Shown here in pieces: positions 22,394-64,000 of a DNA stretch of 64,000 nucleotides; position 1 is the first letter of the stretch, and the number at the start of each line of letters is the position of its first letter. Where the stretch lies: positions 104,472,001-104,536,000 of the forward strand of contig NC_086097.1 in the NCBI RefSeq assembly GCF_963921235.1, read 5' to 3'. Both the position numbers and the translations under genes were made by a program. The notes beneath the pieces are model-generated. The model was given only the letters and a program-made list of their open reading frames with translations, made no database searches and was not told where the DNA came from. Origin of the DNA: Mobula hypostoma (lineage: Eukaryota).

Positions 22394-22399
22394 TTTGCC

Positions 22400-35073: not shown

Positions 35074-35247
35074 CAGGCCCCAGGCACCAACGTGCCAGGA
35101 GAAGACACGGCAGTGATTCCGAATGCAGGTCTGGACGGCAGCGGGCTTGGGCTGTGAGGAACAGGCCGAGTCTGGCAGCTGGTCCCCCTGCGGGGACATA
35201 CAGGAGACTGGCCGTGCCTGGAACCCTTCTCCACAGGACACTGAACA
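35074..35247 (-). CDS. PAPLN: Papilin exon, TSP1 repeat: CSVSCGEGFQARPVSCMSPQGDQLPDSACSSQPKPAAVQTCIRNHCRVFSWHVGAWGL
   Basis: CAG acceptor 35250-35248, GTGAGT donor 35073-35068; 174 bp, phase 0/0; CSVSCG and WxxxxW motifs. Confidence 0.92.
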
Positions 35248-35369
35248 CTGGGGTTGGAGGAAGATTCAACAATCAGAGAGGACAGCGCTCCTCAGTCCCT
35301 CCTGAGACACCCAATCTTTCCTCCCATCCACTACCCATACACACCTTTCCCAGCCCCAACACCTGACAG

Positions 35370-36140
35370 TTCCCCAGGGCCTGACCAAGTGCACCCCCTG
35401 GACTTCAGAGAAGTCACAGAGGCCTTTATAGAGAGATTTGCTTCATTGCTGGCCACTGGTGAAGTTCCAGAAGGGTGGAGGGTGGAGGGTTGCATTGATC
35501 ATGAAGGGAAGCAAGGATAAGCCAGTGAGCATGCCTTCAGTTGTAGGGAAATTATCAGAGGGATAAGATCTACTATTACTCAGACAGGCAAGGCCTGATC
35601 AGGAATAGTCAGCATAGTTCTGGAAGCTCATATCTGATGAATCGTTTGGAGTTTTTCAAAGAGGTAATTTTAGGGACAGATGAGGGTAGGGCAGTCGGTG
35701 TTGTATACATGGACTTTATTTCAGCCTTTGACAAGGTCCTCCATGGCAGGCTGATCTGGAAGGTTAGGTTGCACTGGATACAGGAGTTGCTCGCAAGGTG
35801 GATTCAGAATTGGTTCAATGATAGGAAACAGAGGGAGAAGCAGGTCACTTTTCCAGCTGGAGCCTGGGACGAGCAGGATGGCTCAGGGGTCAGTGTTGGG
35901 CCCTCCATTATTCATCATTTATGTCAATGATTTGGGTATGAATCTACATGGCACAATTAATAAGTTTGCCGATGAAAGCAGATTACAAGGAAATCTTGAT
36001 CAGTTAGGAAGGCGGGCTGAGGAATGGCAAATGGATTTCAACTCTGAGAATTCTAAGCTGATGCATTTTGGCATTCAAAACGGGGTAACAACTGTACAGT
36101 AATTGCAGGGCAGTGACAAGTGTTGTGAACAGGGTATGAC
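35370..36140 (+). mobile_element. Old degraded CR1 ORF2 fragment that runs into the satellite
   Basis: Remnants SPGPD, VPEGWR, YMDFISAFDKVLHGRL, QGSVLGPPLFIIYVNDL, KFADES, WQMDFN, MHFG. Confidence 0.85.
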
Positions 36141-39100
36141 CTTTGCGGAAAATGCAGGGCAGTGACGAGTGTCGTGAACAGGGTATGACCTGTACGGTAA
36201 ATGCAGGGCAGTGACGAGTGTTGTGAACAGGGTATGACCTGTACAGTAAATGCAGGGCAGTGAGGAGTGTTGTGAACAGGGTATGACCTTTACGGAAAAT
36301 GCAGGGCAGTGACGAGTGTTGTGAACAGGGTATGACCTGTACGGTAAATGCAGGGCAGTGACGAGTGTTGTGAACAGGGTATGTCCTGTACGGTAAATGC
36401 AGGGCAGTGAGGAGTGTTGTGAACAGAGTATGACCTGTACAGTAAATGCAGGGCAGTGACGAATGTCGTGAACAGGGTATGACCTGTACCATGAATGCAG
36501 GGCGGTGACGAGTATCGTGAACAGGGTATGACCTCTACGGTAAATGCAGGGCAGTGACGAGTGTTGTGAACAGGGTATGACCTGTATGGTAAATGCAGGG
36601 CAGTGAGGAGCGTCGTGAACAGGGTATGACCTGTACGGTAAATGCAGGGCAGTGACGAGTATCGTGAACAGGGTATGACCTGTACGGTAAATGCAGGGCA
36701 GTGACGAGTGTTGTGAACAGGGTATGACCTGTACGGTAAATGCAGGGCAGTGAGGAGTGTTGTGAACAGGGTATGACCTGTACGGTAAATGCAGGGCAGT
36801 GACGAGTGTCGTGAACAGGGTATGACCTGTACGGTAAATGCAGGGCAGTGACGAGTGTTGTGAACAGGGTATGACCTGTACGGTAAATGCAGGGCAGTGA
36901 GGAGTGTTGTGAACAGGGTATGACCTGTACGGTAAATGCAGGGCAGTGACGAGTGTTGTGAACAGGGTATGACCTGTACAGTAATTGCAGGGCAGTGACG
37001 AGTGTTGTGAACAGGGTATGACCTGTACGGTAAATGCAGGGCAGTGACGAGTGTTGTGAACAGGGTATGACCTGTACAGTAAATGCAGGGCAGTGACGAG
37101 TGTTGTGAACAGGGTATGACCTGTACGGTAAATGCAGGGCAGTGACGAGTGTTGTGAACAGGGTATGACCTGTACAGTAAATGCAGGGCAGTGACGAGTG
37201 TTGTGAACAGGGTATGACCTGTACGGTAAATGCAGGGCAGTGACGAGTGTTGTGAACAGGGTAAGACCTGTACGGTAAATGCAGGGCAGTGACGAGTGTT
37301 GTGAACAGGGTATGACCTGTACGGTAAATGCAGGGCAGTGACGAGTGTTGTGAACAGGGTATGACCTGTACGGTAAATGCAGGGCAGTGACGAGTGTTGT
37401 GAACAGGGTATGACCTGTACAGTAAATGCAGGGCAGTGAGGAGTGTTGTGAACAGGGTATGACCTGTACAGTAAATGCAGGGCAGTGACGAGTGTTGTGA
37501 ACAGGGTATGACCTGTACGGTAAATGCAGGGCAGTGAGGAGTGTTGTGAACAGGGTATGACCTGTACGGTAAATGCAGGGCAGTGACGAGTGTTGTGAAC
37601 AGGGTATGACCTGTACGGTAAATGCAGGGCAGTGACGAGTGTTGTGAACAGGGTATGACCTGTACGGTAAATGCAGGGCAGTGACGAATGTTGTGAACAG
37701 GGTGAGACCTGTACGGTAAATGCAGGGCAGTGAGGAATGTTGTGAACAGGGTGAGACCTGTACGGTAAATGCAGGGCGGTGACGAGTGTTGTGAACAGGT
37801 ATGACCTGTACGGTAAATGCAGGGCAGTGACGAGTGTTTTGAACAGGGTATGACCTGTACAGTAAATGCAGGGCAGTGAGGAGTGTTGTTAACAGGGTAT
37901 GACCTGTACAGTAAATGCAGGGCAGTGACGAGTGTTGTGAACAGGGTAAGACCTGTACAGTAAATGCAGGGCAGTGACGAGTGTTGTGAACAGGGTATGA
38001 CCTGTACGGTAAATGCAGGGCAGTGAGGAGTGTTGTGAACAGGGTATGACCTGTACGGTAAATGCAGGGCAGTGACGAGTGTTGTGAACAGGGTATGACC
38101 TGTACGGTAAATGCAGGGCAGTGACGAGTGTTGTGAACAGGGTAAGACCTGTACGGTAAATGCAGGGCAGTGACGAGTGTTGTGAACAGGGTATGACCTG
38201 TACGGTAAATGCAGGGCAGTGACGAGTGTTGTGAACAGGGTATGACCTCTACAGTAAATGCAGGGCAGTGAGGAGTGTTGTGAACAGGGTATGACCTGTA
38301 CCGTAAATGCAGGGCAGTGACGAGTGTTGTGAACAGGGTATGACCTGTACGGTAAATGCAGGGCAGTGAGGAGTGTTGTGAACAGGGTAAGACCTGTACG
38401 GTAAATGCAGGGCAGTGACGAGTGTTGTGAACAGGGTAAGACCTGTACGGTAAATGCAGAGCGGTGACGAGTGTTGTGAACAGGGAATGACCTGTACAGT
38501 AAATGCAGGGCAGTGACGAATGTTGTGAACAGGGTCAGACCTGTACGGTAAATGCAGGGCAGTGAGGAGTGTTGTGAACAGGGTATGACCTGTACGGTAA
38601 ATGCAGGGCAGTGACGAGTGTTGTGAACAGGGTATGACCTGTACAGTAAATGCAGGGCAGTGACGAGTGTTGTGAACAGGGTATGACCTGTACAGTAAAT
38701 GCAGGGCAGTGACGAGTGTTGTGAACAGGGTATGACCTGTACAGTAAATGCAGGGCGGTGACGAGTGTTGTGAACAGGGTATGACCTGTACAGTAAATGC
38801 AGGGCAGTGACGAGTGTTGTGAACAGGGTATGACCTGTACGGTAAATGCAGGGCAGTGACGAGTGTTGTGAACAGGGTATGACCTGTACGGTAAATGCAG
38901 GGCAGTGACGAGTGTTGTGAACAGGGTATGACCTGTACAGTAAATGCAGGGCAGTGACGAGTGTTGTGAACAGGGTATGACCTGTACGGTAAATGCAGGG
39001 CAGTGACGAGTGTTGTGAACAGGGTATGACCTGTACGGTAAATGCAGGGCAGTGACAAGTATCGTGAACAGGGTATGACCTGTACGGTAAATGCAGGGCA

Positions 39101-42100
39101 GTGACGAGTGTTGTGAACAGGGTATGACCTGTACGGTAATTGCAGGGCAGTGAGGAGTGTTTTGAACAGGGTATGACCTGTACGGCAAATGCAGGGCAGT
39201 GACGAGTGTTGTGAACAGGGTATGACCTTTATGGTAAACGCAGGGCAGTGACGAGTGTTCAGGGCAGTGACGAGTGTTGTGAACAGGGTAAGACCTCTAC
39301 AGTAAATGCAGGGCAGTGAGCAGTGTTTTGAACAGGGTATGACCTGTACAGTAAATGCAGGGCAGTGAGGAGTGTTGTGAACAGGGTATGACCTGTACAG
39401 TAAATGCAGGGCAGTGACGAGTGTTGTGAACAGGGTAAGACCTCTACAGTAAATGCAGGGCAGTGACGAGTGTTGTGAACAGGGTATGAGCTGTACAGTA
39501 ATTGCAGGGCAGTGACTAGTGTCGTGAACAGGGTATGACCTGTACAGTAAATGCAGGGCACTGACGAGTGTCGTGAACAGGGTATGACCTGTACAGTAAT
39601 TGCAGGGCAGTGACTAGTGTCGTGACGAGGGTATGACCTGTACGGTAAATGCAGGGCAGTGACGAGTGTCGTGAACAGGGTATGACCTGTACAGTAACTG
39701 CAGGGCAGTGACTAGTGTCGTAACGAGGGTATGACCTGTACAGTAAATGCAGGGCAGTGACGAGTGTTGTGAACAGGGTATAACCTGTACGGTAAATGCA
39801 GGGCAGTTACGAGTGTTGTGAACAGGGTATGACCTGTACGGTAAATGCAGGGCAGTGAGGAGTGTTGTGAACAGGGTATGACCTGTACGGTAAATGCAGG
39901 GCAGTGACGAGTGTTGTGAACAGGGTATGACCTGTACGGTAAATGCAGGGCAGTGACGAGTGTTGTGAACAGGGTATGACCTGTACGGTAAATGCAGGGC
40001 AGTGACGAGTGTTGTGAACAGGGTATGACCTGTACGGTAAATGCAGGGCAGTGAGGAGTGTTGTGAACAGGGTATGACCTGTACGGTAAATGCAGGGCAG
40101 TGACGAGTGTTGTGAACAGGGTAAGACCTCTACAGTAAATGCAGGGCAGTGACGAGTGTTGTGAACAGGGTATGAGCTGTACAGTAAATGCAGGGCAGTG
40201 ACGAGTGTTGTGAACAGGGTATGACCTGTACGGTAAATGCAGGGCAGTGACGAGTGTTGTGAACAGGGTATGACCTGTACGGTAAATGCAGGGCAGTGAC
40301 AAGTGTCGTGACGAGGGTATGACCTGTACGGTAAATGCAGGGCAGTGACGAGTGTTGTGAACAGGGTATGACCTGTACAGTAAATGCAGGGCAGTGACGA
40401 GTGTTGTGAACAGGGTATGACCTGTACGGTAAATGCAGGGCAGTGACGAGTGTTGTGAACAGGGTATGACCTGTACGGTAAATGCAGGGCAGTGACGAGT
40501 GTTGTGAACAGGGTATGACCTGTACGGTAAATGCAGGGCAGTGACGAGTGTTGTGAACAGGGTATGACCTGTACAGTAAATGCAGGGCAGTGAGGAGTGT
40601 TGTGAACAGGGTATGACCTCTACAGTAATTGCAGGGCAGTGACGAGTGTTGTGAACAGGGTATGACCTGTACGGTAAATGCAGGGCAGTGAGGAGTGTTG
40701 TGAACAGGGTATGACCTGTACAGTAAATGCAGGGCAGTGACGAGTGTTGTGAACAGGGTATGACCTGTACGGTAAATGCAGGGCAGTGACGAGTGTTGTG
40801 AACAGGGTATGACCTGTACGGTAAATGCAGGGCAGTGACGAGTGTTGTGAACAGGGTATGACCTTTATGGTAAACGCAGGGCAGTGACGAGTGTTATGAA
40901 CAGGGTATGGCCTGTACGGTAAATGCAGGGCAGTGACGAGTGTTGTGAACAGGGTATGACCTGTACAGTAATTACAGGGCAGTGAGGAGTTTTGTGAACA
41001 GGGTATGACCTGTACAGTAATTACAGGGCAGTGAGGAGTGTTTTGAACAGGGTATGACCTGTACAGTAAATGCAGGGCAGTGAGGAGTGTTGTGAACAGG
41101 GTATGCCCTGTACAGTAAATGCAGGGCAGTTACGAGTGTTGTGAACAGGGTAAGACCTCTACAGTAAATGCAGGGCAGTGACGAGTGTTGTGAACAGGGT
41201 ATCAGCTGTACAGTAATTGCAGGGCAGTGACGAGTGTCGTGAACAGGGTATGACCTGTACAGTAAATGCAGGGCACTGACGAGTGTCGTGAACAGGGTAT
41301 GACCTGTACAGTAATTGCAGGGCAGTGACTAGTGTCGTAACGAGGGTATGACCTGTACGGTAAATGCAGGGCAGTGACGAGTGTTGTGAACAGGGTATGA
41401 CCTGTACAGTAACTGCAGGGCAGTGACTAGTGTCGTAACGAGGGTATGACCTGTACAGTAAATGCAGGGCAGTGACGAGTGTTGTGAACAGGGTATAACC
41501 TGTACGGTAAATGCAGGGCAGTGACGAGTGTTGTGAACAGGGTATGACCTGTACGGTAAATGCAGGGCAGTGAGGAGTGTTGTGAACAGGGTATGACCTG
41601 TACGGTAAATGCAGGGCAGTGACGAATGTTGTGAACAGGGTGAGACCTGTACGGTAAATGCAGGGCAGTGAGGAATGTTGTGAACAGGGTGAGACCTCTA
41701 CAGTAAATGCAGGGCAGTGACGAGTGTTGTGAACAGATTATGAGCTGTACAGTAATTGCAGGGCAGTGACTAGTGTCGTGAACAGGGTATGACCTGTACG
41801 GTAAATGCAGGGCAGTGACGAGTGTTGTGATCAGGGTATGACCGGTACAGTAATTGCAGGGCAGTGACTAGTGTCGTGACGAGGGTATGACCTGTACGGT
41901 AAATGCAGGGCAGTGACGAGTGTTGTGAACAGGGTATGACCTGTACAGTAAATGCAGGGCAGTGAGGAGTGTTGTTAACAGGGTATGACCTGTACAGTAA
42001 ATGCAGGGCAGTGACGAGTGTTGTGAACAGGGTAAGACCTCTACAGTAAATGCAGGGCAGTGACGAGTGTTGTGAACAGGGTATGACCTGTACGGTAAAT

Positions 42101-45100
42101 GCAGGGCAGTGAGGAGTGTTGTGAACAGGGTATGACCTGTACCGTAAATACAGGGCAGTGACGAGTGTTGTGAACAGGGTATGACCTGTACCGTAAATAC
42201 AGGGCAGTGACGAGTGTTGTGAACAGGGTAAGACCTGTACGGTAAATGCAGGGCAGTGACGAGTGTTGTGAACAGGGTATGACCTGTACCCTAAATGCAG
42301 GGCAGTGACGAGTGTTGTGAACAGGATATGATCTGTACAGTAAATGCAGGGCAGTGAGGAGTGTTGTGAACAGGGTATGAGCTCTACAGTAATTGCAGGG
42401 CAGTGACGAGTGTTGTGAACAGGGTATGACCTGTACGGTAAATGCAGGGCAGTGAGGAGTGTTGTGAACAGGGTATGACCTGTACAGTAAATGCAGGGCA
42501 GTGACGAGTGTTGTGAACAGGGTATGACATGTACGGTAAATGCAGGGCAGTGACGAGTGTTGTGAACAGGGTATGACCTGTACGGTAAATGCAGGGCAGT
42601 GAGGAGTGTTGTGAACAGGGTATGACCTGTACAGTAAATGCAGGGCAGTGACGAGTGTTGTGAACAGGGTATGTCCTGTACGGTAAATGCAGGGCAGTGA
42701 GGAGTGTTGTGAACAGGGTAAGACCTGTACGGTAAATGCAGGGCAGTGACGAGTGTTGTGAACCGGGTATGACCTGTACAGTAAATGCAGGGCGGTGACG
42801 AGTGTTGTGAACAGGGTATGACCTGTACAGTAATTGCAGGACGGTGACGAGTGTTGTGAACAGGGTATGACCTGTACAGTAAATGCAGGGCGGTGACGAG
42901 TGTTGTGAACAGGGTATGACCTGTACAGTAATTGCAGGGCGGTGACGAGTGTTGTGAACAGGGTATGACCTGTACGGTAAATGCAGGGCAGTGAGGAGTG
43001 TTGTGAACAGGGTATGACCTGTACGGTAAATGCAGGGCAGTGACGAGTGTCGTGAACAGGGTATGACCTGTACAGTAAATGCAGGGCAGTGACGAGTGTT
43101 GTGAACAGGGTATGACCTGTACAGTAAATGCAGGGCGGTGACGAGTGTTGTGAACCGAGTATGACCTGTACGGTAAATGCAGGGCAGTGACGAGTGTTGT
43201 GAACCGAGTATGACCTGTACGGTAAATGCAGAGCAGTGAGGAGTGTTGTGAACAGAGTATGACCTGTACGGTAAATGCAGGGCGGTGACGAGCGTTGTGA
43301 ACAGGGTATGACCTGTACGGTAAATGCAGGGCAGTGACGCGTGTTGTGAACAGGGTAAGACCTGTACGGTAAATGCAGGGCAGTGACGAGTGTTGTGAAC
43401 AGGGTATTACCTGTACGGTAAATGCAGGGCAGTGACGAATGTCGTGAACAGGGTATGACCTGTACGGTAAATGCAGGGCAGAGAGGAGTGTTGTGAACAG
43501 GGTATGACCTCTACAGTAATTGCAGGGCAGTGACGAGTGTTGTGAACAGGGTATGACCTGTACGGTAAATGCAGGGCAGTGAGGAGTGTTGTGAACAGGG
43601 TATGACCTGTACAGTAAATGCAGGGCAGTGACGAGTGTTGTGAACAGGGTATGACCTGTACGGTAAATGCAGGGCAGTGAGGAGTGTTGTGAACAGGGTA
43701 TGACCTGTACAGTAAATGCAGGGCTGTGACGAGTGTTGTGAACAGGGTATGACCTGTACAGTAAATGCAGGGCAGTGAGGAGTGTTGTGAACAGGGTATG
43801 ACCTGTACGGTAAATGCAGGGCAGTGACGAGTGTTGTGAACAGGGTATGACCTGTACGGTAAATGCACGGCAGTGAGGAGTGTTGTGAACAGGGTATGAC
43901 CAGTACAGTAAATGCAGGGCAGTGACGAGTGTCGTGAACAGGGTATGACCTGTACAGTAAATGCAGGGCAGTGACGAGTGTCGTGAACAGGGTATGACCT
44001 GTACAGTAAATGCAGGGCAGTGACGAGTGTTGTGAACAGGGTATGACCTGTACGGTAAATGCAGGGCAGTGACGAGTGTTGTGAACCGAGTATGACCTGT
44101 ACAGTCAATGCAGAGCAGTGACGAGTGTTGTGAACAGGGTATGACCTGTACGGTAAATGCAGGGCAGTGACGAGTGTTGTGAACAGGGTATGACCTGTAC
44201 AGTAAATGCAGGGCAGTGACGAGTGTTGTGAACAGGGTATGACCTGTACGGTAAATGCAGGGCAGTGACGAGTGTTGTGAACAGGGTATGACCTGTACGG
44301 TAAATGCAGGGCAGTGAGGAGTGTTGTGAACAGGGTATGACCTGTACAGTAAATGCAGGGCAGTGACGAGTGTCGTGAACAGGGTATGACCTGTACGGTA
44401 AATGCAGGGCAGTGACGAGTGTTGTGAACAGGGTATGACCTGTACGGTAAATGCAGGGTGGTGAGGAGTGTTGTGAACAGGGTATGACCTGTACAGTAAA
44501 TGCAGGGCAGTGACGAGTGTTGTGAACAGGGTGTGACCTGTACAGTAAATGCAGGGCAGTGACGAGTGTCGTGAACAGGGTATGACCTGTACAGTAAATG
44601 CAGGGCAGTGACGAGTGTTGTGAACAGGGTATGACCTGTACGGTAAATGCAGGGCAGTGACGAGTGTTGTGAACAGGGTATGACCTGTACAGTAAATGCA
44701 GGGCAGTGAGGAGTGTTGTGAACAGGGTATGACCTGTACAGTAAATGCAGGGCAGTGACGAGTGTTGTGAACAGGGTATGACCTGTACGGTAAATGCAGG
44801 GCAGTGAGGAGTGTTGTGAACAGGGTATGACCTGTACAGTAAATGCAGGGCAGTGACGAGTGTTGTGAACAGGGTATGACCTGTACGGTAAATGCAGGGC
44901 AGTGACGAGTGTTGTGAACAGGGTATGACCTGTACGGTAAATGCAGGGCAGTGACGAGTGTTGTGAACAGGGTATGACCTGTACGGTAAATGCAGGGCAG
45001 TGACGAGTGTTGTGAACAGGGTATGACCTGTACGGTAAATGCAGGGCAGTGACGAGTGTTGTGAACAGGGTATGACCTGTACAGTAAATGCAGGGCAGTG

Positions 45101-48100
45101 AGGAGTGTTGTGAACAGGGTATGACCTGTACAGTAAATGCAGGGCAGTGAGGAGTGTTGTGAACAGGGTATGACCTGTACAGTAAATGCAGGGCAGTGAG
45201 GAGTGTTGTGAACAGGGTATGACCTGTACAGTAAATGCAGGGCAGTGACGAGTGTTGTGAACAGGGTAAGACCTCTACAGTAAATGCAGGGCAGTGACGA
45301 GTGTTGTGAACAGGGTATGAGCTGTACAGTAATTGCAGGGCAGTGAGGTAAATGCAGGGCAGTGACGAGTGTTGTGAACAGGGTATGACCTGTACGGTAA
45401 ATGCAGGGCAGTGACGAGTGTTGTGAACAGGGTATGACCTGTACGGTAAATGCAGGGCAGTGAGGAGTGTTGTGAACAGGGTATGACCTGTACGGTAAAT
45501 GCAGGGCAGTGACGAGTGTTGTGAACAGGGTATGACCTGTACGGTAAATGCAGGGCAGTGAGGAGTGTTGTGAACAGGGTGAGACCTCTACAGTAAATGC
45601 AGGGCAGTGACGAGTGTTGTGAACAGGGTATGACCTGTACGTAATGCAGGGCAGTGACAGTGTGTGACAGGTATGACCTGTACGGTAAATGCAGGGCAGT
45701 GACGAGTGTTGTGAACAGGGTATGACCTGTACAGTAAATGCAGGGCAGTGAGGAGTGTTGTTAACAGGGTATGACCTGTACAGTAAATGCAGGGCAGTGA
45801 CGAGTGTTGTGAACAGGGTAAGACCTCTACAGTAATTGCAGGGCAGTGACGAGTGTTGTGAACAGGGTATGACCTGTACGGTAAATGCAGGGCAGTGAGG
45901 AGTGTTGTGAACAGGGTATGACCTGTACGGTAAATGCAGGGCAGTGACGAGTGTTGTGAACAGGGTATGACCTGTACCGTAAATGCAGGGCAGTGACGAG
46001 TGTTGTGAACAGGGTAAGACCTGTACGGTAAATGCAGGGCAGTGACGAGTGTTGTGAACAGGGTATGACCTGTACCCTAAATGCAGGCCAGTGACGAGTG
46101 TTGTGAACAGGATATGATCTGTACAGTAAATGCAGGGCAGTGAGGAGTGTTGTGAACAGGGTATGACCTCTACAGTAATTGCAGGGCAGTGACGAGTGTT
46201 GTGAACAGGGTATGACCTGTACGGTAAATGCAGGGCAGTGACGAGTGTTGTGAACAGGGTATGACCTGTACAGTAAATGCAGGGCAGTGACGAGTGTTGT
46301 GACGAGGGTATTACCTGTACGGTAAATGCAGGGCAGTTACGAGTGTTGTGAACAGGGTATGACCTGTACGGTAAATGCAGGGCAGTGACGAGTGTTGTGA
46401 ACAGGGTATGACCTGTACGGTAAATGCAGGGCAGTGACGAGTGTTGTGAACAGGGTATGACCTGTACGGTAAATGCAGGGCAGTGAGGAGTGTTGTGAAC
46501 AGGGTATGACCTGTACGGTAAATGCAGGGCAGTGACGAGTGTTGTGAACAGGGTATGACCTGTACAGTAAATGCAGGGCAGTGACGAGTGTTGTGAACAG
46601 GGTATGACCTGTACAGTAATTGCAGGGCAGTGACGAGTGTTGTGAACAGGGTATGACCTGTACAGTAAATGCAGGGCAGTGACGAGTGTTGTGAACAGGG
46701 TATGACCTGTACAGTAAATGCAGGGCAGTGACGAGTGTTGTGAACAGGGTATGACCTGTACGGTAAATGCAGGGCAGTGAGGAGTGTTGTGAACAGGGTA
46801 TGACCTGTACGGTAAATGCAGGGCAGTGACGAGTGTTGTGAACAGGGTATGACCTGTACAGTAAATGCAGGGCAGTGACGAGTGTTGTGAACAGGGTATG
46901 ACCTGTACAGTAAATGCAGGGCAGTGACGAGTGTTGTGAACAGGGTATGACCTGTACGGTAAATGCAGGGCAGTGACGAGTGTTGTGAACAGGGTATGAC
47001 CTGTACGGTAAATGCAGGGCAGTGACGAGTGTTGTGAACAGGGTATGACCTGTACGGTAAATGCAGGGCAGTGACGAGTGTTGTGAACAGGGTATGACCT
47101 GTACAGTAAATGCAGGGCAGTGACGAGTGTTGTGAACAGGGTATGACCTGTACGGTAAATGCAGGGCAGTGACGAGTGTTGTGAACAGGGTATGACCTGT
47201 ACGTAAATGCAGGGCAGTGACGAGTGTTGTGAACAGGGTATGACCTGTACGTAAATGCAGGGCAGTGACGAGTGTTGTGAACAGGGTATGACCTGTACGG
47301 TAAATGCAGGGCAGTGAGGAGTGTTGTGAACAGGGTATGACCTGTACAGTAAATGCAGGGCAGTGACGAGTGTACGTAATGTGAACAGGGTATGACCTGT
47401 ACAGTAAATGCAGGGCAGTGACGAGTGTGTGAACAGGGTATGACCGTTACAGTAAATGCAGGGCAGTGACGAGTGTCGTGAACAGGGTATGACCTGTACA
47501 GTAAATGCAGGGCAGTGACGAGTGTCGTGAACAGGGTATGACCTGTACAGTAAATGCAGGGCAGTGACGAGTGTTGTGAACAGGGTATGACCTGTACGGT
47601 AAATGCAGGGCAGTGACGAGTGTTGTGAACAGAGTATGACCTGTACAGTCAATGCAGAGCAGTGACGAGTGTTGTGAACAGGGTATGACCTGTACGGTAA
47701 ATGCAGGGCAGTGACGAGTGTTGTGAACAGGGTATGACCTGTACGGTAAATGCAGGGCAGTGACGAGTGTTGTGAACAGGGTATGACCTGTACGGTAAAT
47801 GCAGGGCAGTGAGGAGTGTTGTGAACAGGGTATGACCTGTACGGTAAATGCAGGGCAGTGACGAGTGTTGTGAACAGGGTATGACCTGTACGGTAAATGC
47901 AGGGCAGTGACGAGTGTTGTGAACAGGGTATGACCTGTACGGTAAATGCAGGGCAGTGAGGAGTGTTGTGAACAGGGTATGACCTGTACGGTAAATGCAG
48001 GGCAGTGACGAGTGTTGTGAACAGGGTATGACCTGTACGGTAAATGCAGGGCAGTGACGAGTGTTGTGAACAGGGTATGACCTGTACAGTAAATGCAGGG

Positions 48101-51100
48101 CAGTGAAGTGTTGTGAACAGGGTATGACCTGTACAGTAAATGCAGGGCAGTGACGAGTGTTGTGAACAGGGTATGACCTGTACAGTAAATGCAGGGCAGT
48201 GACGAGTGTTGTGAACAGGGTATGACCTGTACAGTAAATGCAGGGCAGTGACGAGTGTTGTGAACAGGGTATGACCTGTACAGTAAATGCAGGGCAGTGA
48301 CGAGTGTTGTGAACAGGGTATGACCTGTACAGTAAATGCAGGGCAGTGACGAGTGTTGTGAACAGGGTATGACCTGTACAGTAAATGCAGGGCAGTGACG
48401 AGTGTTGTGAACAGGGTATGACCTGTACGGTAAATGCAGGGCAGTGAGGAGTGTTGTGAACAGGGTATGACCTGTACAGTAAATGCAGGGCAGTGACGAG
48501 TGTTGTGAACAGGGTATGACCTGTACGGTAAATGCAGGGCAGTGACGAGTGTTGTGAACAGGGTAAGACCTGTACGGTAAATGCAGGGCAGTGACGAGTG
48601 TTGTGAACAGGGTATGACCTCTACAGTAATTGCAGGGCAGTGCCGAGTGTCGTGAACAGGGTATGACCTGTACGGTAAATGCAGGGCAGTGAGGAGTGTT
48701 GTGAACAGGGTATGACCTGTACAGTAAATGCAGGGCAGTGACGAGTGTTGTGAACAGGGTATGACCTGTACGGTAAATGCAGGGCAGTGACGAGTGTTGT
48801 GAACAGGGTATGACCTGTACGGTAAATGCAGGGCAGAGAGGAGTGTTGTGAACAGGGTATGACCTGTACAGTAAATGCAGGGCAGTGACGAGTGTTGTGA
48901 ACAGGGTATGACCTGTACGGTAAATGCAGGGCAGTGAGGAGTGTTGTGAACAGGGTATGACCTGTACAGTAAATGCAGGGCAGTGACGAGTGTTGTGAAC
49001 AGGGTATGACCTGTACGGTAAATGCAGGGCAGTGACGAGTGTTGTGAACAGGGTATGACCTGTACAGTAAATGCAGGGCAGTGACGAGTGTTGTGAACAG
49101 GGTATGACCTGTACGGTAAATGCAGGGCAGTGAGGAGTGTTGTGAACAGGGTATGACCTGTACGGTAAATGCAGGGCAGTGACGAGTGTTGTGAACAGGG
49201 TATGACCTGTACAGTAAATGCAGGGCAGTGACGAGTGTTGTGAACAGGGTATGACCTGTACAGTAAATGCAGGGCAGTGAGGAGTGTTGTGAACGCAGGG
49301 CAGTGACGAGTGTTGTGAACAGGGTAAGACCTGTACAGTAAATGCAGGGCAGTGAGGAGTGTTGTGAACAGGGTATGACCTGTACGGTAAATGCAGGGCA
49401 GTGACGAGTGTTGTGAACAGGGTATGACCTGTACGGTAAATGCAGGGCAGTGAGGAGTGTTGTGAACAGGGTATGACCTCTACAGTAATTGCAGGGCAGT
49501 GACGAGTGTTGTGAACAGGGTATGACCTGTACGGTAAATGCAGGGCAGTGAGGAGTGTTGTGAACAGGGTATGACCTGTACAGTAAATGCAGGGCAGTGA
49601 CGAGTGTTGTGAACAGGGTATGACATGTACGGTAAATGCAGGGAAGTGACGAGTGTTGTAAACAGGGTATGAACTGTACGGTAAATGCAGGGTAGTGAGG
49701 AGTGTTGTGAACAGGGTATGACCAGTACAGTAAATGCAGGGCAGTGACGAGTGTCGTGAACAGGGTATGACCTGTACGGTAAATGCAGGGCAGTGACGAG
49801 TGTTGTGAACAGGGTATGACCTGTACGGTAAATGCAGGGTGGTGAGGAGTGTTGTGAACAGGGTATGACCTGTACAGTAAATGCAGGGCAGTGACGAGTG
49901 TCGTGAACAGGGTATGACCTGTACAGTAAATGCAGGGCAGTGACGAGTGTCGTGAACAGGGTATGACCTGTACAGTAAATGCAGGGCAGTGACGAGTGTT
50001 GTGAACAGGGTATGACCTGTACGGTAAATGCAGGGCAGTGACGAGTGTTGTGAACCGAGTATGACCTGTACAGTCAATGCAGAGCAGTGACGAGTGTTGT
50101 GAACAGGTTATGACCTGTACGGTAAATGCAGAGCAGTGACGAGTGTTGTGAACAGGGTATGACCTGTACGGTAAATGCAGGGCAGTGAGGAGTGTTGTGA
50201 ACAGGGTATGACCTGTACGGTAAATGCAGGGTGGTGAGGAGTGTTGTGAACAGGGTATGACCTGTACTGTAAATGCAGGGCAGTGAGGAGTGTTGTGAAC
50301 AGGGTATGACCTGTACGGTAAATGCAGGGCAGTGACGAGTGTTGTGAACAGGGTATGACCTGTACGGTAAATGCAGGGCAGTGAGGAGTGTTGTGAACAG
50401 GGTATGACCTGTACAGTAATTGCAGGGCAGTGACGAGTGTTGTGAACAGGGTATGACCTGTACGGTAAATGCAGGGCAGTGAGGAGTGTTGTGAACAGGG
50501 TATGACCTGTACAGTAAATGCAGGGCAGTGACGAGTGTTGTGAACAGGGTATGACCTGTACAGTAAATGCAGGGCAGTGACGAGTGTTGTGAACAGGGTA
50601 TGATCTGTACGGTAAATGCAGGGCAGTGACGAGTGTTGTGAACAGGGTAAGACCTGTACGGTAAATGCAGGGCAGTGACGAGTGTTGTGAACAGGGTATG
50701 ACCTGTACGGTAAATGCAGGGCAGTGACGAGTGTTGTGAACAGGGTATGACCTGTACGGTAAATGCAGGGCAGTGAGGAGTGTTGTGAACAGGGTATGAC
50801 CTGTACAGTAAATGCAGGGCAGTGACGAGTGTTGTGAACAGGGTATGACCTGTACAGTAAATGCAGGGCAGTGACGAGTGTTGTGAACAGGGTATGACCT
50901 GTACGGTAAATGCAGGGCAGTGACGAGTGTTGTGAACAGGGTATGACCTGTACGGTAAATGCAGGGCAGTGACGAGTGTTGTGAACAGGGTATGACCTGT
51001 ACGGTAAATGCAGGGCAGTGAGGAGTGTTGTGAACAGGGTATGACCTGTACGGTAAATGCAGGGCAGTGAGGAGTGTTGTGAACAGGGTATGACCTGTAC

Positions 51101-54100: not shown

Positions 54101-57100
54101 GGCAGTGAGGAGTGTTGTGAACAGGGTATGAGCTCTACAGTAATTGCAGGGCAGTGACGAGTGTTGTGAACAGGGTATGACCTGTACGGTAAATGCAGGG
54201 CAGTGAGGAGTGTTGTGAACAGGGTATGACCTGTACAGTAAATGCAGGGCAGTGACGAGTGTTGTGAACAGGGTATGACCTGTACGGTAAATGCAGGGCA
54301 GTGACGAGTGTTGTGAACAGGGTATGACCTGTACGGTAAATGCAGGGCAGTGAGGAGTGTTGTGAACAGGGTATGACCTGTACAGTAAATGCAGGGCAGT
54401 GACGAGTGTTGTGAACAGGGTATGACCTGTACGGTAAATGCAGGGCAGTGAGGAGTGTTGTGAACAGGGTATGACCTGTACAGTAAATGCAGGGCAGTGA
54501 GGAGTGTTGTGAACAGGGTATGACCTGTACGGTAAATGCAGGGCAGTGAGGAGTGTTGTGAACAGGGTATGACCTGTACAGTAAATGCAGGGCGGTGACG
54601 AGTGTTGTGAACAGGGTATGACCTGTACAGTAAATGCAGGGCAGTGAGGAGTGTTGTGAACAGGGTATGACCTGTACGGTAAATGCAGGGCAGTGACGAG
54701 TGTTGTGAACAGGGTATGACCTGTACGGTAAATGCAGGGCAGTGAGGAGTGTTGTGAACAGGGTATGACCAGTACAGTAAATGCAGGGCAGTGACGAGTG
54801 TCGTGAACAGGGTATGACCTGTACAGTAAATGCAGGGCAGTGACGAGTGTCGTGAACAGGGTATGACCTGTACAGTAAATGCAGGGCAGTGACGAGTGTT
54901 GTGAACAGGGTATGACCTGTACGGTAAATGCAGGGCAGTGACGAGTGTTGTGAACCGAGTATGACCTGTACAGTCAATGCAGAGCAGTGACGAGTGTTGT
55001 GAACAGGGTATGACCTGTACGGTAAATGCAGAGCAGTGACGAGTGTTGTGAACAGGGTATGACCTGTACGGTAAATGCAGGGCAGAGAGAAGTGTTGTGA
55101 ACAGGGTATGACCTGTACGGTAAATGCAGGGCAGTGAGGAGTGTTGTGAACAGGGTATGACCTGTACGGTAAATGCAGGGCAGTGACGAGTGTTGTGAAC
55201 AGGGTATGACCTGTACAGTAATTGCAGGGCAGTGCCGAGTGTCGTGAACAGGGTATGACCTGTACGGTAAATGCAGGGCAGTGACGAGTGTTGTGAACAG
55301 GGTATGACCTGTACGGTAAATGCAGGGCAGTGACGAGTGTTGTGAACAGGGTATGACCTGTACGGTAAATGCAGGGCAGTGAGGAGTGTTGTGAACAGGG
55401 TATGACCTGTACGGTAAATGCAGGGCAGTGACGAGTGTTGTGAACAGGGTATGACCTGTACCCTAAATGCAGGGCAGTGACGAGTGTTGTGAACAGGGTA
55501 TGACCTGTACAGTAAATGCAGGGCAGTGAGGAGTGTTGTGAACAGGGTAAGACCTGTATAGTAAATGCAGGGCAGTGACGAGTGTTGTGAACAGGGAATG
55601 ACCTGTACGGTAAACGCAGGGCAGTGACGAGTGTTGTGAACAGGGTAAGACCTGTACAGTAATTGCAGGGCAGTGAGGAGTGTTTTGAACAGGGTATGAC
55701 CTGTACGGTAAATGCAGGGCAGTGACGAGTGTTGTGAACAGGGTATGACCTGTACGGTAAATGCAGGGCAGAGAGGAGTGTTGTGAACAGGGTATGACCT
55801 CTACAGTAATTGCAGGGCAGTGACGAGTGTTGTGAACAGGGTATGACCTGTACGGTAAATGCAGGGCAGTGAGGAGTGTTGTGAACAGGGTATGACCTGT
55901 ACAGTAAATGCAGGGCAGTGACGAGTGTTGTGAACAGGGTATGACATGTACGGTAAATGCAGGGAAGTGACGAGTGTTGTAAACAGGGTATGAACTGTAC
56001 GGTAAATGCAGGGTAGTGAGGAGTGTTGTGAACAGGGTATGACCAGTACAGTAAATGCAGGGCAGTGACGAGTGTCGTGAACAGGGTATGACCTGTACGG
56101 TAAATGCAGGGCAGTGACGAGTGTTGTGAACAGGGTATGACCTGTACGGTAAATGCAGGGTGGTGAGGAGTGTTGTGAACAGGGTATGACCTGTACAGTA
56201 AATGCAGGGCAGTGACGAGTGTCGTGAACAGGGTGTGACCTGTACAGTAAATGCAGGGCAGTGACGAGTGTCGTGAACAGGGTATGACCTGTACAGTAAA
56301 TGCAGGGCAGTGACGAGTGTTGTGAACAGGGTATGACCTGTACGGTAAATGCAGGGCAGTGACGACTGTTGTGAACCGAGTATGACCTGTACAGTCAATG
56401 CAGAGCAGTGACGAGTGTTGTGAACAGGTTATGACCTGTACGGTAAATGCAGAGCAGTGACGAGTGTTGTGAACAGGGTATGACCTGTACGGTAAATGCA
56501 GGGCAGAGAGGAGTGTTGTGAACAGGGTATGACCTGTACGGTAAATGCAGGGTGGTGAGGAGTGTTGTGAACAGGGTATGACCTGCACTGTAAATGCAGG
56601 GCAGTGAGGAGTGTTGTGAACAGGGTATGACCTGCACGGTAAATGCAGGGCAGTGACGAGTGTTGTGAACAGGGTATGACCTGTACGGTAAATGCAGGGC
56701 AGTGAGGAGTGTTGTGAACAGGGTATGACCTCTACAGTAATTGCAGGGCAGTGACGAGCGTTGTGAACAGGGTATGACCTGTACGGTAAATGCAGGGCAG
56801 TGAGGAGTGTTGTGAACAGGGTATGACCTGTACAGTAAATGCAGGGCAGTGACGAGTGTTGTGAACAGGGTATGACCTGTACAGTAAATGCAGGGCAGTG
56901 ACGAGTGTTGTGAACAGGGTATGATCTGTACGGTAAATGCAGGGCAGTGACGAGTGTTGTGAACAGGGTAAGACCTGTACGGTAAATGCAGGGCAGAGAG
57001 AAGTGTTGTGAACAGGGTATGACCTGTACGGTAAATGCAGGGCAGTGACGAGTGTTGTGAACAGGGTATGACCTGTACGGTAAATGCAGGGCAGTGAGGA

Positions 57101-60100
57101 GTGTTGTGAACAGGGTATGACCTGTACAGTAAATGCAGGGCGGTGACGAGTGTTGTGAACAGGGTATGACCTGTACAGTAAATGCAGGGCAGTGAGGAGT
57201 GTTGTGAACAGGGTATGACCTGTACGGTAAATGCAGGGCAGTGACGAGTGTTGTGAACAGGGTATGACCTGTACGGTAAATGCAGGGCAGTGAGGAGTGT
57301 TGTGAACAGGGTATGACCTGTACAGTAAATGCAGGGCAGTGACGAGTGTTGTGAACAGGGTATGACCTGTACAGTAAATGCAGGGCAGTGACGAGTGTTG
57401 TGAACAGGGTATGACCTGTACAGTAAATGCAGGGCAGTGACGAGTGTTGTGAACAGGGTATGACCTGTACGGTAAATGCAGGGCAGTGACGAGTGTTGTG
57501 AACAGAGTATGACCTGTACAGTAATTGCAGGGCAGTGACGAGTGTTGTGAACAGGGTATGACCTGTACGGTAAATGCAGGGCAGTGACGAGTGTTGTGAA
57601 CAGGGTATGACCTGTACGGTAAATGCAGGGCAGTGAGGAGTGTTGTGAACCGAGTATGACCTGTACGGTAAATGCAGGGCAGTGAGGAGTGTTGTGAACA
57701 GGGTATGACCTGCACGGTAAATGCAGGGCAGTGACGAGTGTTGTGAACAGGGTATGACCTGTACGGTAATTGCAGGGCGGTGACGAGTGTCGTGAACAGG
57801 GTATGACCTGTACAGTAAATTCAGGGCAGTGACGAGTGTTGTGAACAGGGTATGACCTGTACGGTAAATGCAGGGCAGTGACGAGTGTTGTGAACAGGGT
57901 ATGACCTGTACGGTAAATGCAGGGCAGTGAGGAGTGTTGTGAACAGGGTATGACCTGTACGGTAAATGCAGGGCAGTGACGAGTGTTGTGAACAGGGTAT
58001 GACCTGTACGGTAAATGCAGGGCAGTGACGAGTGTTGTGAACAGGGTATGACCTGTACAGTAAATGCAGGGCAGTGAGGAGTGTTGTGAACAGGGTATGA
58101 CCTGTACAGTAAATGCAGGGCAGTGACGAGTGTTGTGAACAGGGTATGACCTGTACGGTAAATGCAGGGCAGTGACGAGTGTTGTGAACAGGGTAAGACC
58201 TGTACAGTAATTGCAGGGCAGTGACGAGTGTTTTGAACAGGGTATGACCTGTACGGTAAATGCAGGGCAGTGACGAGTGTTGTGAACAGGGTATGACCTG
58301 TACGGTAAATGCAGGGCAGAGAGGAGTGTTGTGAACAGGGTATGACCTCTACAGTAATTGCAGGGCAGTGACGAGTGTTGTGAACAGGGTATGACCTGTA
58401 CGGTAAAAGCAGGGCAGTGAGGAGTGTTGTGAACAGGGTATGACCTGTACAGTAAATGCAGGGCAGTGACGAGTGTTGTGAACAGGGTATGACATGTACG
58501 GTAAATGCAGGGAAGTGACGAGTGTTGTAAACAGGGTATGAACTGTACGGTAAATGCAGGGTAGTGAGGAGTGTTGTGAACAGGTATGACCAGTACAGTA
58601 AATGCAGGGCAGTGACGAGTGTCGTGAACAGGGTATGACCTGTACGGTAAATGCAGGGCAGTGACGAGTGTTGTGAACAGGGTATGACCTGTACGGTAAA
58701 TGCAGGGTGCTGAGGAGTGTTGTGAACAGGGTATGACCTGTACAGTAAATGCAGGGCAGTGACGAGTGTCGTGAACAGGGTGTGACCTGTACAGTAAATG
58801 CAGGGCAGTGACGAGTGTCGTGAACAGGGTATGACCTGTACAGTAAATGCAGGGCAGTGACGAGTGTTGTGAACAGGGTATGACCTGTACGGTAAATGCA
58901 GGGCAGTGACGACTGTTGTGAACCGAGTATGACCTGTACAGTCAATGCAGAGCAGTGACGAGTGTTGTGAACAGGTTATGACCTGTACGGTAAATGCAGA
59001 GCAGTGACGAGTGTTGTGAACAGGGTATGACCTGTACGGTAAATGCAGGGCAGAGAGGAGTGTTGTGAACAGGGTATGACCTGTACGGTAAATGCAGGGT
59101 GGTGAGGAGTGTTGTAAACAGGGTATGACCTGTACTGTAAATGCAGGGCAGTGAGGAGTGTTGTGAACAGGGTATGACCTGCACGGTAAATGCAGGGCAG
59201 TGACGAGTGTTGTGAACAGGGTATGACCTGTACGGTAAATGCAGGGCAGTGAGGAGTGTTGTGAACAGGGTATGACCTCTACAGTAATTGCAGGGCAGTG
59301 ACGAGTGTTGTGAACAGGGTATGACCTGTACGGTAAATGCAGGGCAGTGAGGAGTGTTGTGAACAGGGTATGACCTGTACAGTAAATGCAGGGCAGTGAC
59401 GAGTGTTGTGAACAGGGTATGACCTGTACAGTAAATGCAGGGCAGTGACGAGTGTTGTGAACAGGGTATGACCTGTACGGTAAATGCAGGGCAGTGACGA
59501 GTGTTGTGAACAGGGTAAGACCTGTACGGTAAATGCAGGGCAGTGACGAGTGTTGTGAACAGGGTATGACCTGTACGGTAAATGCAGGGCAGTGACGAGT
59601 GTTGTGAACAGGGTATGACCTGTACGGTAAATGCAGGGCAGTGACGAGTGTTGTGAACAGGGTATGACCTGTACGGTAAATGCAGGGCAGTGACGAGTGT
59701 TGTGAACAGGGTATGACCTGTACAGTAAATGCAGGGCAGTGACGCGTGTTGTGAACAGTGTAAGACCTGTACGGTAAATGCAGGGTGGTGAGGAGTGTTG
59801 TGAACAGGGTATGACCTGTACGGTAAATGCAGGGCAGTGACGAGTGTTGTGAACAGGGTATGACCTGTACGGTAAATGCAGGGCAGTGAGGAGTGTTGTG
59901 AACAGGGTAAGACCTGTACAGTAAATGCAGGGCAGTGACGAGTGTTGTGAACAGGGTATGACCTGTACGGTAAATGCAGGGCAGTGACGCGTGTTGTGAA
60001 CAGTGTAAGACCTGTACGGTAAATGCAGGGTGGTGAGGAGTGTTGTGAACAGGGTATGACCTGTACAGTAAATGCAGGGCAGTGACGAGTGTTGTGAACA

Positions 60101-63100
60101 GGGTAAGACCTCTACAGTAAATGCAGGGCAGTGACGAGTGTTGTGAACAGGGTATGACCTGTACAGTAAATGCAGGGCAGTGACGAGTGTTGTGAACAGG
60201 GTAAGACCTGTACGGTAAATGCAGGGCAGTGACGAGTGTTGTGAACAGGGTATGACCTGTACGGTAAATGCAGGGCAGTGACGAGTGTTGTGAACAGGGT
60301 ATGACCTGTACGGTAAATGCAGGGCAGTGAGGAGTGTTGTGAACAGGGTATGACCTGTACGGTAAATGCAGGGCAGTGAGGAGTGTTGTGAACAGGGTAT
60401 GACCTGTACAGTAAATACAGGGCGGTGACGAGTGTTGTGAACAGGGTATGACCTGTACAGTAAATGCAGGGCAGTGAGGAGTGTTGTGAACAGGGTATGA
60501 CCTGTACGGTAAATGCAGGGCAGTGACGAGTGTTGTGAACAGGGTATGACCTGTACGGTAAATGCAGGGCAGTGAGGAGTGTTGTGAACAGGGTATGACC
60601 TGTACAGTAAATGCAGGGCAGTGACGAGTGTCGTGAACAGGGTATGACCTGTACAGTAAATGCAGGGCAGTGACGAGTGTCGTGAACAGGGTATGACCTG
60701 TACAGTAAATGCAGGGCAGTGACGAGTGTTGTGAACAGGGTATGACCTGTACGGTAAATGCAGGGCAGTGACGAGTGTTGTGAACCGAGTATGACCTGTA
60801 CAGTCAATGCAGAGCAGTGACGAGTGTTGTGAACAGGGTATGACCTGTACGGTAAATGCAGGGCAGTGACGAGTGTTGTGAACAGGGTATGACCTGTACG
60901 GTAAATGCAGGGCAGTGAGGAGTGTTGTGAACAGGGTATGACCTGTACGGTAAATGCAGGGCAGTGAGGAGTGTTGTGAACAGGGTATGACCTGTACGGT
61001 AAATGCAGGGCAGTGACGAGTGTTGTGAACAGGGTATGACCTGTACGGTAATTGCAGGGCAGTGACGAGTGTTGTGAACAGGGTATGACCTGTACGGTAA
61101 ATGCAGGGCAGTGACGAGTGTTGTGAACAGGGTATGACCTGTACGGTAAATGCAGGGCAGTGACGAGTGTTGTGAACAGGGTATGACATGTACGGTAAAT
61201 GCAGGGAAGTGACGAGTGTTGTAAACAGGGTATGAACTGTACGGTAAATGCAGGGTAGTGAGGAGTGTTGTGAACAGGGTATGACCAGTACAGTAAATGC
61301 AGGGCAGTGACGAGTGTCGTGAACAGGGTATGACCTGTACGGTAAATGCAGGGCAGTGACGAGTGTTGTGAACAGGGTATGACCTGTACGGTAAATGCAG
61401 GGTGGTGAGGAGTGTTGTGAACAGGGTATGACCTGTACAGTAAATGCAGGGCAGTGACGAGTGTCGTGAACAGGGTGTGACCTGTACAGTAAATGCAGGG
61501 CAGTGACGAGTGTCGTGAACAGGGTATGACCTGTACAGTAAATGCAGGGCAGTGACGAGTGTTGTGAACAGGGTATGACCTGTACGGTAAATGCAGGGCA
61601 GTGACGACTGTTGTGAACCGAGTATGACCTGTACAGTCAATGCAGAGCAGTGACGAGTGTTGTGAACAGGTTATGACCTGTACGGTAAATGCAGAGCAGT
61701 GACGAGTGTTGTGAACAGGGTATGACCTGTACGGTAAATGCAGGGCAGAGAGGAGTGTTGTGAACAGGGTATGACCTGTACGGTAAATGCAGGGTGGTGA
61801 GGAGTGTTGTGAACAGGGTATGACCTGCACTGTAAATGCAGGGCAGTGAGGAGTGTTGTGAACAGGGTATGACCTGCACGGTAAATGCAGGGCAGTGACG
61901 AGTGTTGTGAACAGGGTATGACCTGTACGGTAAATGCAGGGCAGTGAGGAGTGTTGTGAACAGGGTATGACCTCTACAGTAATTGCAGGGCAGTGACGAG
62001 CGTTGTGAACAGGGTATGACCTGTACGGTAAATGCAGGGCAGTGAGGAGTGTTGTGAACAGGGTATGACCTGTACAGTAAATGCAGGGCAGTGACGAGTG
62101 TTGTGAACAGGGTATGACCTGTACAGTAAATGCAGGGCAGTGACGAGTGTTGTGAACAGGGTATGATCTGTACGGTAAATGCAGGGCAGTGACGAGTGTT
62201 GTGAACAGGGTAAGATCTGTACGGTAAATGCAGGGCAGTGACGAGTGTTGTGAACAGGGTATGACCTGTACGGTAAATGCAGGGCAGTGACGAGTGTTGT
62301 GAACAGGGTATGACCTGTACGGTAAATGCAGGGCAGTGAGGAGTGTTGTGAACAGGGTATGACCTGTACAGTAAATGCAGGGCGGTGACGAGTGTTGTGA
62401 ACAGGGTATGACCTGTACAGTAAATGCAGGGCAGTGAGGAGTGTTGTGAACAGGGTATGACCTGTACGGTAAATGCAGGGCAGTGACGAGTGTTGTGAAC
62501 AGGGTATGACCTGTACGGTAAATGCAGGGCAGTGAGGAGTGTTGTGAACAGGGTATGACCTGTACAGTAAATGCAGGGCAGTGACGAGTGTCGTGAACAG
62601 GGTATGACCTGTACAGTAAATGCAGGGCAGTGACGAGTGTCGTGAACAGGGTATGACCTGTACAGTAAATGCAGGGCAGTGACGAGTGTTGTGAACAGGG
62701 TATGACCTGTACGGTAAATGCAGGGCAGTGACGAGTGTTGTGAACCGAGTATGACCTGTACAGTCAATGCAGAGCAGTGACGAGTGTTGTGAACAGGGTA
62801 TGACCTGTACGGTAAATGCAGGGCAGTGACGAGTGTTGTGAACAGGGTATGACCTGTACGGTAAATGCAGGGCAGAGAGGAGTGTTGTGAACAGGGTATG
62901 ACCTGTACGGTAAATGCAGGGCAGTGAGGAGTGTTGTGAACAGGGTATGACCTGTACGGTAAATGCAGGGCAGTGACGAGTGTTGTGAACAGGGTATGAC
63001 CTGTACGGTAATTGCAGGGCAGTGACGAGTGTCGTGAACAGGGTATGACCTGTACAGTAAATGCAGGGCAGTGACGAGTGTTGTGAACAGGGTATGACCT

Positions 63101-64000
63101 GTACGGTAAATGCAGGGCAGTGACGAGTGTTGTGAACAGGGTATGACCTGTACGGTAAATGCAGGGCAGTGAGGAGTGTTGTGAACAGGGTATGACCTGT
63201 ACGGTAAATGCAGGGCAGTGACGAGTGTTGTGAACAGGGTATGACCTGTACCCTAAATGCAGGGCAGTGACGAGTGTTGTGAACAGGGTATGATCTGTAC
63301 AGTAAATGCAGGGCAGTGAGGAGTGTTGTGAACAGGGTATGACCTGTATAGTAAATGCAGGGCACTGACGAGTGTTGTGAACAGGGAATGACCTGTACGG
63401 TAAATGCAGGGCAGTGACGAGTGTTGTGAACAGGGTAAGACCTGTACAGTAATTGCAGGGCAGTGAGGAGTGTTGTGAACAGGGTATGACCTGTACGGTA
63501 AATGCAGGGCAGTGACGAGTGTTGTGAACAGGGTATGACCTGTACGGTAAATGCAGGGCAGTGAGGAGTGTTGTGAACAGGGTATGACCTCTACAGTAAT
63601 TGCAGGGCAGTGACGAGTGTTGTGAACAGGGTATGACCTGTACGGTAAAAGCAGGGCAGTGAGGAGTGTTGTGAACAGGGTATGACCTGTACAGTAAATG
63701 CAGGGCAGTGACGAGTGTTGTGAACAGGGTATGACATGTACGGTAAATGCAGGGAAGTGACGAGTGTTGTAAACAGGGTATGAACTGTACGGTAAATGCA
63801 GGGTAGTGAGGAGTGTTGTGAACAGGGTATGACCAGTACAGTAAATGCAGGGCAGTGACGAGTGTCGTGAACAGGGTATGACCTGTACGGTAAATGCAGG
63901 GCAGTGACGAGTGTTGTGAACAGGGTATGACCTGTACGGTAAATGCAGGGTGGTGAGGAGTGTTGTGAACAGGGTATGACCTGTACAGTAAATGCAGGGC
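36092..64000. repeat. 49-bp satellite, roughly 570 monomers in the window, continuing past its end (GTATGACCTGTAC(G/A)GTAAATGCAGGGCAGTGA(C/G)GAGTGTTGTGAACAGG)
   Basis: 49-bp period (e.g. GGGTATG at 36181 and 36230), highly homogeneous. Confidence 0.98.

Follow-up and report, generated by a model that had tools for sequence, protein, structure and literature searches.

A 49-bp satellite array adjoining a decayed LINE in the papilin gene of Mobula hypostoma, and its probable birth in place

The seed of a long tandem repeat is usually lost, so that its origin is hard to study (PMC3389668, in the part of the paper available). In the window analysed here, a stretch of 64,000 nucleotides of Mobula hypostoma starting more than 102 Mb into its sequence piece, a satellite of 49-bp units follows a LINE remnant, which raises the question of whether the array was born where it is now found, from the element to which it is attached. 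The array comprises the following features.

36081..64000, plus strand: 49-bp tandem array of at least 570 units, running past the window end
36081..36129, plus strand: unit 1, in the phase of the LINE, with 7 of 49 positions differing from the consensus and a diverged left edge colinear with the LINE; present also in a related organism (organism B)
36130..36181, plus strand: unit 2 (36130-36178) and the next CAG; the gapless match of organism B stops at 36181 in both of its runs
45322..49281, plus strand: region with 9 of the 12 units of odd length; one-base losses in runs occur in several of them
54525..63931, plus strand: internal duplications of blocks of about 52-56 units (2.5-2.7 kb), at lags of 52, 55, 107 and 159 units

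An array of 49-bp units longer than 27 kb had been claimed in an earlier note on this DNA and was borne out, as TRF returned a period of 49 from 36092 up to the window end and a script counted 570 unit starts within the 64-kb window, a lower bound because the array leaves it. The start of the first monomer needed correction from 36092 to 36081, the natural unit boundary. The spacing was exactly 49 nt in 557 of 569 intervals, the units fell into 129 types, the commonest accounting for 123 of 557, and no reverse-strand unit was found by the script within the array. Each unit differed from the consensus by 1.2-2.3 positions in every 2-kb bin, without a gradient along the array, and the mean pairwise difference among units was 5.4%, or 3.5-3.7% when the commonest variant sites were left out (3.7% without the two common sites), with 59 of the 79 distinct variants common to several units. 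Inner units are thus homogeneous within a long locus, unit 1 being the outlier. No Rfam match was returned for 33000-38000, and none of the observations points to a centromeric satellite.

The array grew partly by large multi-kilobase blocks. Units at a lag of 107 were identical in 41 of 56 cases and those at a lag of 52 in 30 of 52, and the longest exact run of repeated units was 20, whereas 30 shuffles gave runs of no more than 6; no short higher-order period was detected, lags 1-20 being near background. The two common unit variants occurred in all four combinations, which points to exchange between units. The odd-length units at 45322-49281 are possibly sequencing errors.

The remnant on the left of the array is as follows.

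35363..36080, plus strand: decayed CR1-type LINE ORF2 remnant (reverse-transcriptase region), putative parent of the array; frameshifted, with an internal deletion before KFAD..

The remnant ends in KFAD..WQMDFN..MHFG and passes directly into unit 1, without foreign sequence between the two. This colinear, unbroken run, already described from the letters, was confirmed by tblastn with the better-kept LINE at 8480-9868 of the window, which returned two colinear matches at 35559-35834 and 35869-36081 (E 2e-39; 56% and 42% identity), the last one stopping at H-F-G. A DNA alignment placed the 5' limit of the remnant at about 35363, and the Pfam RVT_1 model gave an E value of 5.5e-4, below the cut-off. 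The junction peptide retrieved 8 reverse-transcriptase (RT) proteins at 41-48% identity; the protein relatives found for the parent are RT proteins, mostly unnamed, and its ORF2 RT region is colinear with CR1-type copies. We take the element to be a CR1 from its motifs, the searches themselves showing a reverse transcriptase. Among batoid LINEs the L2/CR1/Rex group predominates (preprint 10.64898/2026.10.27.761883).

The exons that surround the two elements belong to papilin.

35074..35247, minus strand: internal papilin TSP1 exon (Pfam TSP1_ADAMTS, E 1e-11; 92% to residues 498-557 of stingray papilin)
2152..34219, minus strand: seven further papilin exons (tblastn; Pfam TSP1 and Kunitz)
34070-34219, about 33315-33400, about 27217-27504 and about 16547-16654, minus strand: first part of these exons (tblastn, Pfam)
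about 6248-6385, about 3306-3608 (Kunitz) and 2152-2292, minus strand: second part of these exons (tblastn, Pfam)

The eight minus-strand exons correspond, in order, to residues 498-942 of stingray papilin, and no exon of their own was found by tblastn within the window for residues 1-497. The exon at 35074-35247 has kept an intact acceptor at 35248-35249, which lies 833 nt from unit 1, the array being upstream of the exon. A papilin-like record of Mobula hypostoma, 572 aa long, starts inside this exon, beside the array, and shows 100% identity to several of the exons, whereas the papilin records of stingray, torpedo ray and skate measure 1096-1158 aa; no separate N-terminal model for the window species occurred among the 110 matches under 623 aa, which does not imply its absence. 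The intact acceptor and the full-length orthologues are sound grounds to infer that the LINE and the array would sit in a papilin intron, with the LINE antisense to the gene. The intronic location suggested earlier, with upstream papilin exons beyond the window, is supported by the same two observations. Within the coverage of our literature search, which left out most subscription journals and preprint supplements, nothing was found on papilin in Mobula, and the main text of the Mobula genome preprint holds no mention of it.

TRF located five further tandem arrays in the same gene, within 36 kb. As many kinds of sequence have been amplified in this region, the LINE origin of the array may be incidental.

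On the papilin strand the array is open over frames of up to 2569 codons, and all 20 stop-free frames of at least 400 codons lie on this strand, as if the units formed a coding repeat of the gene. We give this reading hardly any credence, since 49 is not a multiple of three, a consensus devoid of minus-strand stops is also obtained for 15% of shuffled units, and variants that create stops show no depletion (13 of 79, with 10.7 expected; p 0.44 for the summed count). A coding role was rejected, the long frames following from the stop-free consensus, and the array gives no indication of a function.

To identify the unit, we took the 80 bases downstream of H-F-G from each of ten LINE copies in the window and scored it against them, with letter shuffles, four of the copies being re-tested with 10,000 dinucleotide shuffles each. 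The two best comparators were as follows.

13606..13685, minus strand: decayed LINE copy; of all sequence outside the array, its colinear segment comes closest to the unit
19563..19642, minus strand: second comparator, same segment of another LINE copy (p 0.005)

With letter shuffles, four of the ten copies gave p<0.05, one of them through a gappy alignment, and five gave p above 0.29. Dinucleotide shuffles left two of four copies significant: the segment at 13606-13685 reached p 1e-4 and ranked first among 1800 background windows; the segment at 19563-19642 followed. The copy at 9119-9198 went from p 0.037 with letter shuffles to p 0.14 with dinucleotide shuffles, and its near-twin at 33 kb gave p 0.30. 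The resemblance of the monomer to the next piece of ORF2, which the earlier note had drawn from the copy at 9120-9200, therefore stands through the two segments listed above and not through that comparator; the alignment at the colinear position, whose lack of significance would have counted against the note, proved significant, as 0 of 10,000 shuffles reached the score of the copy at 13606-13685. Since the significance is confined to some LINE copies, the unit would belong to one subfamily of these LINEs, and it is itself well diverged.

Read in codons, the unit gives QGMTCTVN + RAVTSVV and the copy at 13606-13685 gives QGRTT*AN + RALRSAL. The unit thus amounts to 17 ORF2 codons less two bases, beginning at the Q that follows H-F-G..N and reaching the Q of Q-R-D-L-G, and its match to the next 17 codons of ORF2 includes indels. 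The unit was missed by a profile built on a mixture of the ten LINE copies, which reported 15 of 1000 shuffles, at 2.1 bits at best, and among 150 RT proteins, 98 of which had a scorable segment, none matched the unit translation well (best score 23). Neither the unit in metagenome contigs nor the LINE-segment motifs in viral and metagenome contigs were found, these collections being poor in animal DNA and uninformative for rays.

Public sequencing contigs from 4 of the 12 listed runs were aligned to 34900-36240; run X9 (organism C, share 0.06), with zero depth over units 2-3, does not contain the locus and was left out. Run X1 (organism A) may be the window's own source, with 0 differences from the flank across 719 and 454 bases, and is therefore no independent evidence. 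Over the units, its contig depths sum to 215,151-256,689 against a single-copy depth of 9.7-10.3, an excess of over 20,000-fold that is not a copy number, as overlapping short contigs can overcount up to 31-fold, and organism A would carry roughly 700-26,000 units. No contig of this run covers 36080-36094, so that the junction is unbridged in organism A, a hole which in itself proves nothing.

In organism B, represented by one sample with two runs (X5 and X7), 27 positions out of about 1000 in the non-coding flanks differ from the window, the flank divergence being 2.3-2.7% (about 97% identity). Each of its runs returned one junction contig, of 561 nt at depth 6.8 in one run and of 566 nt at depth 46.2 in the other, the same depth as the flanking single-copy contigs. 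The contig aligned without gaps to 36015-36181 with 12 differences, the junction being flanked by 66 and 101 letters, and continued after 36181 with a stretch of about 394 letters unrelated to the window at this place. The end of the match corresponds to exactly two units plus CAG, the codon that opens Q-R-D-L-G in the window LINE copy at 9 kb, and from this end point ORF2 would appear to resume in organism B past 36181. None of the B contigs of the two runs fitted two places, and the depth over the units was 1.3-4.5 times that of single copy. Organism B is without a satellite of this unit, and no reservoir occurs in the two runs. The comparison with a related species at the orthologous locus, which the earlier note had proposed, thus returned the LINE followed by exactly two units on a single-copy contig.

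These contigs bear on the suspicion of an assembly fault, either a mis-join between array and LINE or an inflated array. The uncovered stretch in run X1, the crowding of odd-length units at 45322-49281 and the public gene model beginning in the exon next to the array could all be read in that sense. The junction, however, stands on one contig in an independent species, and the great depth of the unit in run X1 makes the array real, although its length and inner order may still be wrong; an assembly artefact is therefore very improbable.

The colinear LINE homology, together with the single-copy contig that leads from the LINE into two units in an organism with no satellite elsewhere, indicates that the array was very probably born where it is now found, from a segment of the LINE ORF2. 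As the junction of organism B lies on one contig, it argues against a mis-join and against the insertion of an older satellite alike. A satellite formed from another LINE copy elsewhere could have entered by homologous exchange or gene conversion, and the first 11 bases of the inner unit are indeed nearer to the copy at 13606-13685 than the local left edge is. Such an entry is nevertheless improbable, since organism B has the same junction with its two units in single copy and no reservoir of units in the two runs, and the indel pattern of both units is common to the local LINE copy.

Granted birth in place, the two units of organism B may be either a seed that never expanded or the scar of a larger array, older than the split between A and B, that collapsed by deletion to its two edge units. 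Diversity among units, at 5.4% or at 3.5-3.7% with the commonest sites left out, is greater than the flank divergence of 2.3-2.7%, which at equal mutation rates speaks against a purely post-split origin and for the collapse, and so does the sharing of 59 of the 79 variants among several units. In both species, several left-edge sites distinguish unit 1 from unit 2, so that the first duplication predates the split, again as a collapse would have it. At the left edge organism B reads Y-T-V and the window C-T-V. Against it, unit 2 of organism B is nearly the A consensus (among the nine of 12 differences listed, it has the consensus at four of five sites and a common A variant at the fifth) and the match ends exactly in phase, as predicted for a pair that never expanded; no stray unit copies were seen at depth in organism B, and some of the window variants may be errors. 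Tandem arrays may moreover mutate faster than their flanks. The excess diversity would be due either to faster mutation of the array, in part to sequencing error, or to an array older than the split with a collapse in organism B. On balance, we are inclined to see the ancestral seed in the two units of organism B, the collapse being a serious possibility that we find less convincing. The earlier picture of an old LINE that seeded a young array with the parent still attached holds for the birth in place and for the attached parent, whereas the youth of the array is unproven, unit diversity being greater than flank divergence.

With the two-unit state taken as the seed, the course of events would start from an old CR1-type LINE copy, the one visible in the window, antisense in the putative papilin intron. 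A 49-bp piece of its ORF2 would then have become a simple tandem pair, the state seen in organism B and presumed for the common ancestor. Slippage, or an unequal exchange, between short ends that resemble each other may have produced the pair; such ends are proposed because both begin with the codon CAG in related copies; this microhomology is short and was read from other LINE copies, not from a one-unit allele. The first duplication thus probably took a microhomology-type route and was followed by block duplications. In the lineage of the window the inner unit, on this account, was amplified to the at least 570 copies observed, partly by duplication of blocks and with exchange between units, the left-edge unit being left unhomogenised. 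The resulting array would be neutral, non-coding and devoid of a function of its own.

A bolder version, which we consider doubtful, has the two-unit seed growing, after the split from a species about 3% distant, to hundreds of kb (upper bound about 1.3 Mb) and mutating faster than its flanks, thus making a giant intron or cutting the gene, with papilin acting as a local nursery of arrays, one of which copies an exon end with its splice donor. If true, this would be a dated and polarised birth of a vertebrate satellite, from 2 to 10,000 copies, and it might affect a conserved matrix gene.

The array accounts for the matching gene model that starts at its edge, and it raises the question of papilin splicing across it. 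With an attached parent and a two-unit relative, the order of steps, the growth rate and the mutation rate of the array become measurable with public ray genomes, and thanks to the two-unit orthologue the birth of the satellite can be tested for its direction and rate, which lifts the locus above a routine case. The kind of event is known, and the value of the locus is that of a clean test case.

Within the same literature coverage, nothing was found on this locus or on intronic satellite tandem repeats of elasmobranchs. The closest system is that of the squamate SINE-derived satellites, or sSats (Vassetzky, Kosushkin, Ryskov 2023; PMC10702118, in its available part), for which a parent attached on one side is described as a common pattern, in loci of up to 1000 units of 70-290 bp, with a pilot comparison of orthologous loci. 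As in the array described here, the tandem units represent a portion of a retroelement, the terminal unit is longer and runs into the parent, inner units are homogeneous in long loci and the orthologous loci of two species are compared. The sSats differ in having a SINE parent and units of 70-290 bp, whereas here the unit is 49 bp and comes from a LINE coding region; the parent encodes reverse-transcriptase motifs and is hence not a SINE, so that the array falls outside the strict sSat definition. Two rattlesnakes have equal sSat unit numbers in 74% of orthologous loci, some differing by 10 or more, while here 2 units stand against at least 570 (PMC10702118). An intact birth site with its parent attached is consequently less unusual than first claimed, attached parents having been published in that work, although the two-state comparison is unusually clean.

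Satellites derived from LINE ORF2 include chicken HinfI/SCR1, from CR1, Phodopus PROsat and seal Pvc 20 (PMC9659126, in its available part). Their unit is related to LINE ORF2, as here, and in chicken to CR1; as the review describes them, the link is the similarity of a LINE-containing unit, with no mention in the available text of a parent locus or a two-unit orthologue. The accessible portion of a parrot preprint (10.1101/2021.03.08.434498) describes no CR1-derived satellite. Human tandem repeats derived from transposable elements (TEs) are treated in PMC3389668, and the available part of PMC9659126 quotes 7276 human minisatellites from TEs. The Haber-Louis model, a microhomology-mediated duplication from 1x to 2x between short look-alike ends (PMC13167724 and PMC3389668, as far as available), has the same first step as proposed here; its evidence consists of 1x to 2x changes with rare 3x states (PMC13167724), whereas here 2x is set against hundreds or thousands. 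TE-derived satellites, including those with attached parents, are thus already known, and what is new is this locus, in which the small and the large state are both visible.

On the minus strand, which is the strand of papilin, stop-free frames cross the 49-bp satellite array (36075-64000), the longest of them reaching 2569 codons. These long frames arise because the consensus of the 49-bp unit contains no stop, and no selection on the minus-strand open frames was seen over 36075-64000. Both common variants of the unit create or destroy a CpG within the array (36081-64000), and the consensus carries the CpG form at both sites, whereas the LINE copy at 13606-13685 (minus strand), the best match to the unit outside the array, lacks the CpG at the second site. 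The CpG observed/expected ratio was 0.59 inside the array and 0.27 outside.

Five further tandem arrays were located, which together occupy 6628 bases within the window's first 36,000:

4-1845, 30/35-bp tandem array, intronic in papilin
2625-3347, 77/102-bp tandem array, in which the 3' end of papilin's Kunitz exon is duplicated together with its splice donor
3683-4670, 16-bp tandem array, intronic in papilin
13976-16538, 32-bp array of 80 units, starting about 10 bases past the splice donor of a papilin exon (about 16547-16654)
30288-30799, 76-bp tandem array, intronic in papilin

The array at 2625-3347 comprises eight copies of the Kunitz exon end, half of which (4/8) retain the AG/GT donor while the other four have lost it; the array could provide alternative donors. 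The papilin records of Mobula birostris are likewise fragmentary (P0023 and P0045, 171 and 232 aa), and papilin may therefore be a difficult gene for assembly or annotation throughout Mobula.

Other mobile elements were also present in the window:

17568-18930 and 31228-32250, a pair of related sequences with terminal inverted repeats, recognized by eye and apparently copies of a Tc1-type DNA transposon
24650-26130, a further non-LTR element of distinct type, Rex/L2-like by its motifs, inserted into an inverted Penelope-like stretch, with a weak reverse transcriptase match at 24948-25253

In another organism, the predicted protein P0142 (4625 aa) is built from a LINE ORF2 segment repeated 33 times in tandem, and this segment overlaps the same ORF2 region as the 49-bp unit. 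P0142 thus represents another putative array derived from LINE coding DNA.
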